From Acidobacteriota bacterium (lineage in GTDB: Bacteria > Acidobacteriota > JAAYUB01), in contig JAGNHB010000046.1 in assembly GCA_018001935.1 (NCBI GenBank), positions 1 through 32,000 of the forward strand: DNA of 32,000 bases, given 5' to 3'. The notes under the pieces were generated by a model, which was not told the DNA's origin, searched no databases, and saw only the letters and a list, made by a program, of their open reading frames with translations. Position numbers and translations under genes: made by a program. Of this stretch, positions 24,374 through 27,300 are shown piece after piece. The stretch's first letter is position 1, and every line of letters starts with the position of its first letter.

Positions 24374-27300
24374 TCACCCCATGGAGACCACGAACCGCTG
24401 CAGGTTCTCCAGTCGTTTCCCCAGTTCCTTCATGAAGCGCAGGGCCAGGCCGGGGTGATCCGACAGCAGCCGTTGCAGCCAAGAGCCGTCCAGGCGCAGG
24501 ACCAGGGTCCCGTCGAAGACCGGTTCGGCGATCACGGAAGTCGGTTCGCCCCACAGGGCGTTCTCCCCGAGAAAGGCGTTCTCCCCTGCCACGAAGAGGG
24601 TGCCGAGCCAGCCTTCGCGGGAGTGCTTGAAGACCTCCAGGTAACCCTTCTCCACAAGGAAGAGGTCGGGGTTGGCGTCGCCTTCCCAGAGCAGGACGTC
24701 GTCCCGGTCGTAGTACTCCCGGCGGCCGGCACAGGCGGCCCGGAAGAGGAGGTCCGCGTCGGCGCCCCCGAAGAGCGGCGTGCCGGACAGGAAGGCCGCG
24801 ACGTCCGCGACCGCGTGCCGGAGCATGGGGCGCATCTTTGCTGGGTCCACCGGCGTCCAGGCGAAACCGAGGCGGTCCAGGAGGGCCCGGGTCTTCCCCG
24901 AGAGCCGGACCGTCTCCGTCACCGGGCCGTCCCGGTCGCTCAGCCAGTCCATGTGCAGCATGAAGAGTTCGATCTGGTCCCGGAACGCCGGCCGCGTGAA
25001 GTTGCGGCTGAGCCACGCGATGAAGTCCGGCCGGGTCATCACCCGCACGTTCAACCCGACCTCGGGGTCGCGCAGGACGGCGGCCAGGTCGGCCCGCAGC
25101 GGGTTCTCGACGTGGAAGGTCCGGTTGGCCAGGGCGGGACGGTCGAAGAGGGTCAGGATCGCCCGGCTCACCTGGTCCACGAAGGAGAAATCGAAGACCT
25201 CTCCCTCCATCACCGCCCCGAGGCGGGCGGCGGACTTCACCAGGGCGTAGAAGACGTTGTCCTCCAGGTTTTCCTGGGGGACGCCCGTCCCGGAGTGGTA
25301 GACGATGTTCCCGACCCGGTAGATGTTGGCCGTCAAACCCTGCGCCCGGGCTTCGAGGAGGAGACGTTCCGCCTCGAGCTTGGTGACCAGGTAGGGGTTG
25401 CCGGTCTTCTGCCCGGCGTCGCAGACGTCCTCCGTGAAGAGGAGGGCCGCCTCCCCCGCCACGTCCCCCAGCCCCACCGAGAGGGTCGAGACGTGGTGGA
25501 AGTCCTTCGGGGCTCCATCCCGGGCGAAGTCCGCCAGGTTCCGGACGGAGTGCACGTTGGCCGACCGGAAGTCCTCCAGCTTCCCGTAGTGCTTGACGAC
25601 GGCTGCGCTGTTCACGATGCAGTCCACCGCCGCCGCCAGGTCGGTGTACGCCGCCGGGCCCATCCCGAGCCGCTCCCGCGCCAGGTCCCCGCTTTGCACC
25701 CGGAGCTTGTCCGCCCCGGGCAGGGCGTCGCTCCCGAAGTAGTACGCCAGTTTCCGGCGGAGGCGCTCGGCGGCCCCGGCGTCGTCTTCGGCACGCACCA
25801 CGGCGGTCACCGCCCCGACGTCCGGCCGCGCCAGGAGGTCCTGCAGCAGGTGGGCGCCGAGGAAACCGGTGGCGCCCGTCAGGAGGACGTGGCGGTAAGC
25901 CTTCCGGCCGGAAAGGTCCAGGCCCGACAAGGCCTCCACCTCGCGTTCGTAGCGCCCGATCCCTTCCCGGACGGCCGGGAGGGTGACAGCATCCACAGTG
26001 GGCGGCGGGGCCTCGCGGAGCTTTTCCAGCCGCCGGCGGAGCACGTCGGTCTCCTCGGGAAGGTGCTCCGCCTGCTCCTCCACGGTCTGATAGCGGTAGA
26101 CGTCGTTGAGGTCGGCCTTGAAATGCTTCTGAAGCCGGGCGACGAGGGCGATGGCTTTCAGGGAGTGCCCGCCCGCGTGGAAGAAGTTGTCCCGGACACC
26201 GATTCGGTCCAGCCGGAGCACCTCGCGCCAGATCTCGAGGATGCGCTGCTCCCGCGGGTTCCGCGGCGCCACGTATGCCGCGCCGGTGGCGAGACGTTCG
26301 GAGGGCGGGGGCAGGGCCTTCCGGTCCACCTTGCCGTTCTCGTTGACCGGGATCCGCTCCAGCCGGATGAAGAACGAGGGGACCATGTACTCCGGGAGCG
26401 CGCCGGCCAGGAATTCCCTCAGCTCCGCGGGGAACAGGTCGCGTTCTGCTTCGAAGTAGGCGCAGAGGTACGCTTCGGGTTGGTCGTCCCGGCGCAGGGT
26501 GACCACCACGGAGCGGATGTCGGGGTGCGCCAGCAGTTTCTGCTCGATCTCCCCGCACTCGATCCGGAAGCCCCGGATCTTGACCTGGGTGTCCGCCCGG
26601 CCGAGGTACTCCAGCGTGCCGTCCATGAGGAAGCGGGCCAGGTCGCCGGTACGGTAGAGGGTGTCCCCGTCCCGGAAGGGGCTGGGGAGGAAGCGACCGG
26701 CCGTCATCTCGGGCCGGTTCCGGTAACCCGCCGCCACGCCCTCGCCGCCGATGAAGATCTCCCCCTTGGCCCCGAAGGGGACCGGGTGAAGGTCGTCGTC
26801 CAGGAGGTAGATGGCGGCGTTGGCGCACGGCACGCCGATGGGGACCGCTGCGCCCCGGTCCCGCTCCGGGTCGAAGCGGTGGATCATGCACCCCACCGCG
26901 GCCTCGGTGGGCCCGTACTCGTTGAAGACCGTCACGGGGTGGTCGAACCGGGCGGTGAGCTTGCGGCAGAGGTCGGACGGGAGTTCCTCGCCCCCGACGA
27001 TGAACTTCTTCAGGTTGCGGTTCGGGATGTCGAGTTCCGAGAGGATCCGCAGGTGGCTCGGCGTCAGCTTGACGATCCCCGTGCGGTCTTCTGCGACGAT
27101 GCGGCGGATCAGGGCGATGTTGTCCCCGGTGTCGGGGTAGATGACGAGGGTGTTTCCCGACAGCAGGGGGGTGAACACCGACGTGACCGTCAGGTCGAAA
27201 GAGATGGAGGAGTGGAGCGAAAAGTCGAGCGCCTCGCCCTCCAGGTAGGCCCGCTGCGCCCAGGTGACGTAGTTGACCACGTTCCGGTGGCGAAGCATCA

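Follow-up and report, generated by a model that had tools for sequence, protein, structure and literature searches.

Analysis of a 32,000-nucleotide stretch of an Acidobacteriota contig (JAGNHB010000046.1, positions 1 to 32,000, referred to here as the window) reveals a non-ribosomal peptide synthetase (NRPS) gene whose product continues in frame beyond its terminal thioester reductase (R) domain into a cyclic-nucleotide-binding (CNB) domain. The arrangement is not peculiar to the window. A distinct clade of NRPSs, recovered as about 50 clusters at 50% identity, shares the R-CNB pair as its conserved C-terminal end, and the fusion noticed when the window was read from its sequence alone belongs to this sizeable group. 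Three features define the clade, and the window protein has all of them: a terminal CNB domain directly after the R domain, a tryptophan-containing hairpin with the pattern SxxGWxGT, and a phosphate-binding cassette without its arginine.

The NRPS gene lies on the minus strand at 24374..31999 (2541 visible codons in the open reading frame (ORF) list and translation, with the stop codon at 24374..24376) and extends past the end of the window, so that the N-terminus is not included. Pfam identifies two Condensation, two AMP-binding and two PP-binding domains together with NAD_binding_4 and cNMP_binding, and with a phmmer domain map this gives a visible architecture of C-A-T-C-A-T-R-CNB, where C, A and T are condensation, adenylation and carrier (thiolation) domains. 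A full-length relative of 2619 amino acids (P0058) is encoded by a complete gene that starts with a C domain. The translation contains the segments TGATGFLG, YLVTK, FLSGTPLF, LWEGD..DLFLVEKGYLEVF and GENAFLGENALWGEPTSVIA, and runs from the R domain into the tail without a stop codon, ending in ...RFVVSMG*. The sequence-only reading had described this continuous frame without giving its strand; it is borne out on the minus strand, and the placement of the tail at 24377-24800 agrees with the CNB domain at 24377..24799. Two antisense ORFs at 24332-27328(+) and 24780-25250(+) were rejected as GC-rich noise (the window has a GC content of about 0.68), the strong homology belonging to the minus-strand frame.

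The R domain (24800..25888, minus strand; residues 2038-2400) was delimited from Pfam, alignment, PDB matches and AlphaFold2 (AF2) modelling. As expected of an NRPS terminal R domain, a PP-binding domain (approximately residues 1922-1974) directly precedes NAD_binding_4. The latter corresponds to the Rossmann part (residues 2040-2281, Pfam E 1.4e-48) and holds both the TGxxGxxG motif, as TGATGFLG, and the catalytic Y-x-x-x-K, as YLVTK; the T, G, Y and K columns are invariant in a 51-sequence alignment of R domains. The C-terminal substrate subdomain closes with ...LGFAWTP.... The nearest solved structures are the R domain of MxaA (4u7w, E 5e-30), an NRPS R domain (6vtj) and AusA (4f6c), and in an AF2 model of the R-CNB didomain the predicted local distance difference test score (pLDDT) exceeds 90 throughout the R part. 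With its catalytic motifs retained, the reductase appears to be active. The passage from the R motif LGFxWP to the first CNB helix is nearly gapless in an alignment of 49 homologous tails (alignment A1), with a single-residue gap in one sequence, and in the AF2 model of the tail the junction helices are predicted to be continuous (pLDDT 93-98), with no flexible linker. The alignment and the model therefore suggest a rigid coupling between the two domains and not a flexible tether.

The last 141 residues of the protein (24377..24799, minus strand; residues 2401-2541) are a genuine CNB-fold domain of the Crp/PKA type, as the sequence-only reading had proposed from motifs. Pfam family PF00027 (cNMP_binding) matches residues 2428-2514; the score is 29.3 bits when the full translation is scanned and 33.1 bits (E 5.6e-8) for the tail by itself, both above the gathering cut-off of 27.5. 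A profile built from alignment A1 matches 247 CNB chains in the PDB, among them chains of PKG, PKA-R and Crp/Fnr proteins; E values against solved CNB domains are of the order of 1e-20 to 1e-28, and single-domain matches are at 6e-20. The AF2 tail model built on the same alignment has a mean pLDDT of 92.7 and, by DSSP, consists of N-terminal helices, an eight-stranded beta-roll (strands 70-148), a cassette helix (123-127), alphaB (149-158) and a long alphaC (160-184) that extends to the last residue of the NRPS (...VVSMG). In a Foldseek comparison with the PDB, this model matches GlxR, M. tuberculosis CRP, T. thermophilus CAP and the CNB domains of PKG (E ~1e-11, root-mean-square deviation 1.8-2.1 Å over about 142 columns), and there is also a weak NCBIfam match to Encapsulin 2B. 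The tail is not that of a Crp/FNR regulator, which would carry a helix-turn-helix (HTH) after alphaC: no HTH family was found in the Pfam scan, and the protein ends five residues past the last conserved leucine of alphaC.

The phosphate-binding cassette (G-E-N-A-L-W-G-E-P-T-S-V-I-A, 24527..24568, minus strand) is not canonical. In the window protein the Gly-Glu pair is retained, the arginine is replaced by threonine (P-T-S-V), and there is one residue fewer than in the cassette of PKA RI-alpha; in the HMMER alignment, P-S-S-v-t-a of the family lies opposite P-R-T-A-S-V of PKG. The PTS that the sequence-only reading had picked out as an altered cassette is representative of a loss throughout the clade. 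In the arginine-equivalent column of the 49 tails there are 31 serines, ten alanines, two threonines, one isoleucine and one asparagine, and arginine is present in none (0/49). The cassette glycine is kept in 44 of 49 tails and the glutamate in 27 of 49, and the residue following the glutamate is acidic in 32 of 49, this position being asparagine in the window protein. Because the phosphate-binding arginine is missing, canonical binding of cyclic AMP (cAMP) or cyclic GMP (cGMP) by the tail is unlikely, as judged from the residues at the site.

The best conserved part of the tail is elsewhere, in the beta4-beta5 hairpin that carries the clade signature (S-R-E-G-W-L-G-T, 24599..24622, minus strand). 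Its tryptophan, W108, is present in all 49 tails, and the accompanying residues are nearly as constant (G110 in 48, G107 in 47, T111 in 43 and S104 in 41). We take this invariant tryptophan to correspond to Lys57 of CAP, within the flap, on the basis of a gapless alignment to the E. coli CAP sequence. G96 is likewise invariant (49/49), and the extreme C-terminus follows a V-x-[NS]-h-G pattern, with V182 in 41 of 49 tails. Among the 150 best CNB matches described below, GWxG[TS] is present only in R-fused tails, in fragments of them, and in one protein in which HEAT repeats precede the CNB domain (P0183).

Relatives were recovered only by a query containing both R and CNB domains and by exhaustive HMMER searching. 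The R+CNB query returned four proteins with approximately 98% query coverage and 66, 40, 38 and 39% identity, all containing NAD_binding_4 and cNMP_binding. The exhaustive search compared a 188-residue tail with 1.84 billion cluster representatives (50% identity) and gave 1193 matches, the best 150 of which were domain-mapped with phmmer. About 48 of these 150 representatives end in ...T-R-CNB, with the match running to the last residue of the protein, and every NRPS-type match has an R domain, and no other release domain, immediately upstream of the CNB domain. In total an R domain followed by a C-terminal CNB domain is present for 53 tails including that of the window, and the 49 that were aligned all lack the arginine and possess the tryptophan hairpin. 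A word-indexed protein search with the tail alone gave no match, and with the 49-tail profile it gave only two unrelated CNB proteins; a scan of genome contigs with a single protein found no relative. Six loci matched a degenerate DNA pattern for W-E-G...G...E...G-W-x-G, but none encodes a relative by tblastn and they were discarded as chance matches. A 563-residue protein (P0003) that might have represented a stand-alone R-CNB protein was also rejected, since a run of ten N lies at the T|R junction in both of its contigs. These identical runs (L011 at about 4330-4345 and L012 at about 1856-1871) are positioned exactly at the junction in different samples, and reflect a scaffold gap or masking, not a split gene.

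The R-CNB synthetases range from about 1500 to 5238 amino acids and include mono-, bi-, tri- and four- to five-module proteins. Fourteen are bimodular, like the window NRPS, with lengths of about 2606-2718 residues (most of them 2606-2662), and the tail of P0058 is 78% identical to that of the window. In a neighbour-joining tree of R domains, 41 CNB-fused R domains fall within a clade of 45. The phyla represented include Desulfobacterota, Firmicutes, Eremiobacterota and Wallbacteria, and among the organisms are anaerobes such as sulfate reducers and Negativicutes; source taxa are Azotosporobacter soli, Syntrophomonas, Eremiobacterota / Vulcanimicrobiota, Desulfovermiculus, Desulfobacteraceae, Desulforegulaceae and Candidatus Wallbacteria. 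The fusion is seen in NCBI, JGI, ENA and Logan assemblies, and one member (WP_346355761.1, from A. soli) derives from the genome of a cultured isolate. In public records the members of the clade bear only general names such as 'amino acid adenylation domain-containing protein'. Nei-Gojobori dN/dS values for the tail of the window protein are 0.27 against P0058 and 0.55 against P0001, comparable to those of the A and R domains, and these substitution patterns indicate that the tail is under purifying selection.

Outside of the NRPSs, the nearest neighbours of the tail are HEAT-CNB proteins, NTE/patatin proteins with two CNB domains, and multi-CNB proteins. The HEAT-CNB proteins P0183, P0141 and P0160 are about 1000 residues long, with HEAT repeats and a C-terminal CNB domain; P0183 carries GWEGT, and P0141 and P0160 have weak matches to the major facilitator superfamily (MFS) or to TLC transporters, below the Pfam cut-offs. 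The sequence similarity hints that such proteins may have been the source from which the NRPS tail was recruited.

The adenylation domains offer some indication of what the reductase would release. Code positions were taken from an alignment anchored on core motifs. Module 1 has DAS[D/T]TGEVVK, and module 2 (A domain at 26300-27757, minus strand) has DLTKIGEVGK, which we take to resemble the code for asparagine; the terminal aldehyde or alcohol of the released product would then derive from asparagine. Eight relatives have this code, or a close variant, in their R-proximal module (P0058, P0074, P0076, P0078, P0100 and P0180, with DLTKIGEIGK in P0087 and DLTKIGEVAK in P0095). Last-module codes otherwise vary widely among the R-CNB relatives, and include DFWNIGMVHK, DVVHVGEMAK, DAWNVGEISK and others. 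The products of the clade are presumably peptide aldehydes or alcohols.

The genomic contexts of ten R-CNB relatives were compared. An MFS transporter gene is adjacent in four of the ten, a MatE exporter gene is one gene away in another (L017), and a gene for a 4'-phosphopantetheinyl transferase (PPTase) is adjacent in four. These MFS or PPTase neighbours are located at L008 130-1596, L013 6161-7621, L014 6611-8014 and L011 6089-7372, and at L010 9126-9866, L014 15970-16560, L015 13073-14071 and L016 16480-17172. No tailoring enzyme recurs across the ten contexts, and the R-CNB genes are essentially lone NRPS genes. In the window, the downstream neighbour of the NRPS gene is a convergent pdxJ (23418..24152, plus strand; Pfam PdxJ, E 2e-75). 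A pdxJ gene also converges on the NRPS gene in the closest relative (L008), where an MFS transporter gene lies just upstream of the NRPS, and by synteny an MFS gene may likewise adjoin the window just past its end at 32000.

What might a CNB domain contribute at this position? The reading that we prefer, while placing it a little below an even chance, is that the tail is a regulatory module acting on reductive release and answering to something other than cAMP or cGMP. Through the CNB domain, a signal would govern the NAD(P)H-dependent step in which the peptidyl thioester is released as an aldehyde or alcohol. That signal could be a small molecule, uncharged or of the ribose type, that occupies the remodelled pocket, or it could be a partner touching the tryptophan hairpin, and the conformational change would travel through the N-terminal helices of the CNB domain into the substrate subdomain of the reductase. 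HCN and MloK channels also have C-terminally placed CNB domains, and the direction of coupling there is the one proposed here. Sequence comparison and modelling lend support through the identity of the fold, the recurrence of the fusion, the constant position of the CNB domain after R, the fixed junction, the purifying selection and the absence of the arginine from all 49 tails. Since the tail is kept across differing A-domain codes and numbers of modules, its role would be tied to R-mediated release and not to any one product. By analogy, the best precedent for a regulatory module with a non-cyclic ligand would be the trypanosomatid PKA regulatory subunit, which is compared below.

Several observations weigh against this preferred reading. 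The didomain AF2 model is confident for the R domain only, the CNB part having a pLDDT of 40-66 because the alignment is shallow there, and no R/CNB interface is claimed from it. The residues that classically contact the ligand are weakly conserved within the clade, as the glutamate count illustrates, and the best conserved element is a surface hairpin, a pattern of conservation that would favour protein contact at least as much as a ligand in the pocket. Nor is a nucleotide cyclase encoded in any of the ten contexts (0/10), or any conserved second-messenger gene; in L009 a single GGDEF gene comes after the NRPS. The proposal made in the sequence-only reading, that release or assembly is gated by a small ligand other than cAMP or cGMP, is therefore only partly sustained: the loss of the arginine does make the canonical nucleotides unlikely, but gating itself is conjectural, with the glutamate so variable and the hairpin equally suited to docking. 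A bolder form of the regulatory reading, in which this multi-phylum clade possesses a built-in small-molecule sensor whose arginine-less pocket, possibly for a nucleoside-like or uncharged metabolite, allosterically switches the terminal reductase, seems to us doubtful. Were it correct, a cellular signal would control product release by a megasynthetase post-translationally, a form of NRPS regulation that has not been described. To our knowledge, transcription and precursor supply account for almost all control of NRPS output, and sensor domains fused to the assembly line are essentially unknown. A conserved CNB domain on the release domain offers a concrete way to test whether release is under allosteric control, or how megasynthetases oligomerise or dock.

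The conservation of the hairpin is also what recommends a purely structural role, which we regard as rather unlikely but as the most serious competitor. Here the tail would be a ligand-free CNB-homology domain, as in KCNH channels, whose Crp-like alphaC brings two termination modules together as a dimer, or which docks the synthetase to a partner such as the MFS exporter, the PPTase or the membrane through the tryptophan hairpin and the V-x-[NS]-h-G terminus. The arginine is absent and the glutamate inconstant, yet W108, G107 and G110 at the hairpin tip are near-invariant, and the extreme C-terminus is conserved at V182; the tail model is structurally closest to Crp-family proteins, which are dimers, and the C-helix is part of the alignment; exporter genes of the MFS or MATE type lie beside the NRPS gene or close to it in five of ten contexts, and a PPTase gene in four; and the only non-NRPS protein with GWxGT is the HEAT-CNB protein P0183, related HEAT-CNB proteins having sub-threshold MFS or TLC matches. 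However, NRPSs are typically monomeric, an amphipathic alphaC is to be expected of any CNB domain, and exporters commonly adjoin biosynthetic genes in general. It is improbable, in our estimate, that the tail binds the substrate or product of the pathway, either capturing or shielding a reactive peptide aldehyde or exerting product feedback on release. The CNB domain does adjoin the substrate subdomain of the reductase, and its pocket-facing positions are rich in serine and threonine (T111 in 43 of 49 tails, and serines at 131 and 132), but the tail signature is constant over diverse last-module codes and one to five modules, and a single conserved pocket is unlikely to recognise all of the corresponding products.

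The remaining alternatives can be given little weight. A canonical cAMP or cGMP sensor gating the NRPS would account for the above-threshold cNMP_binding match and for the Gly-Glu pair of the window cassette, but we consider it highly improbable given that the arginine that neutralises the cyclic phosphate is present in none of 49 tails, that the cassette is shortened relative to PKA RI-alpha, and that cyclase genes are absent from the ten contexts. Scarcely more credible, and if anything a shade less so, is a functionless evolutionary relic: the ligand-binding residues have indeed degenerated, but tails from several phyla, at 25-78% identity, have kept their invariant residues and are not truncated, and dN/dS values are 0.27 to 0.55. 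Finally, the sequence-only reading had allowed that a frameshift or lost stop codon in the assembly might have joined a stand-alone Crp-like regulator to the NRPS. The probability of such an artefact is negligible, as about 50 independent clusters, from many separate genomes and metagenomes including the A. soli isolate, share the in-frame fusion, the protein ends right after alphaC where the HTH of a Crp-like regulator would have to follow, and the tail is under in-frame purifying selection.

The intergenic region between the convergent NRPS and pdxJ genes contains inverted arrays of 9-nt repeats (24196..24360, no strand assigned), identified with Tandem Repeats Finder, an inverted-repeat search and pattern counting. 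Six copies of AAAGGACNN lie opposite five copies of the inverted GTCCTTTNG, giving a long imperfect hairpin. The same 9-mer array is present at 7637-7670, after an ORF ending at 7647 (pattern count 12 versus 0 expected), and there is a degenerate version in the matching intergenic position of L008 (9620-9725). From its sequence and positions the hairpin is probably a bidirectional terminator or a dispersed intergenic element. Upstream of pdxJ, the segment at 23187-23363 has an unusually low GC content (about 0.59) and contains short tandem repeats of GTTCGTGTG (2.8 copies), CGTGTATTC (2.4 copies) and a 15-mer (2.2 copies).

The other genes of the window are of varied types. The ORF at 13154-16822(+) encodes DEAD and Helicase_C domains with a C-terminal phosphoribosyltransferase-like domain, and resembles a ComFA-ComFC fusion; its N-terminal 550 residues have no family match and the start may be over-called. 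It is followed, with a 4-nt overlap, by a dprA gene (DNA_processg_A) at 16819-18129(+), and the two may constitute a competence or DNA-uptake gene pair. At 22344-22811(+) there is a gene for a 155-residue PIN-domain protein, followed by a 136-residue ORF without a family, which may be a toxin-antitoxin pair. A 1156-residue subtilase (Peptidase_S8) is encoded at 24-3494(-), and a 783-residue protein with a weak CHAT-domain match at 5296-7647(+), and between 3511 and 13401 there are several large ORFs with no Pfam family.

Comparison with known systems shows familiar components in a new relationship. The window R domain is like the terminal R (or TD, terminal domain) domains of NRPSs and polyketide synthases, such as those of MxaA (4u7w), AusA (4f6c) and M. 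tuberculosis Nrp (4dqv), in its extended short-chain dehydrogenase/reductase fold, its TGxxGxxG and Y-x-x-x-K motifs, its position directly after the last carrier domain and its predicted reductive chain release. However, R domains described hitherto stop after the C-terminal substrate subdomain, as does the closest non-fused relative (P0005), which ends about 20 residues past LGFAWTKP, whereas the window R domain has the 141-residue CNB domain added. The tail shares its beta-roll and long alphaC with the Crp/FNR effector domains of GlxR, M. tuberculosis CRP and T. thermophilus CAP, which are its best structural matches, but it lacks both the HTH output and the cassette arginine, and the upstream enzyme would have to serve as its output.

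CNB domains are elsewhere attached to enzymes instead of DNA-binding domains. NTE/patatin phospholipases are one example, and the patatin proteins with two CNB domains are near the tail in sequence. The mycobacterial acetyltransferase Rv0998/MSMEG_5458 is a cAMP-regulated enzyme controlled through its fused CNB domain, and family 2B encapsulins, reportedly found in biosynthetic clusters, are said to have an inserted CNB domain. The CNB-fused enzymes with known ligands keep a canonical cassette and none is an NRPS, in contrast to the arginine-less tail on the window NRPS. A CNB fold that has become independent of cyclic nucleotides is seen in the CNB-homology domains of KCNH channels, which have an intrinsic ligand.

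The closest parallel for the cassette itself is in trypanosomatid PKA regulatory subunits, in which the arginine is replaced by threonine or asparagine, an extra glutamate excludes phosphate, and nucleosides are bound instead of cAMP (PMC10959531). Site A of TbPKAR has Thr318 where the window protein also has threonine, and the Gly-Glu pair is retained in both; the extra glutamate, however, is at +3 from the glycine (PMC10959531), whereas the acidic residue frequent in the R-CNB clade is at +2 and is replaced by asparagine in the window protein. Full-text searches of open-access papers turned up no description of an NRPS with a CNB domain, which agrees with the statement in the sequence-only reading that no characterised NRPS is known to end in one. 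The CNB domain on an NRPS terminal reductase is a conserved, hitherto undescribed combination of known parts, and it would add a bacterial, enzyme-linked case to the few CNB domains that have given up cyclic nucleotides.

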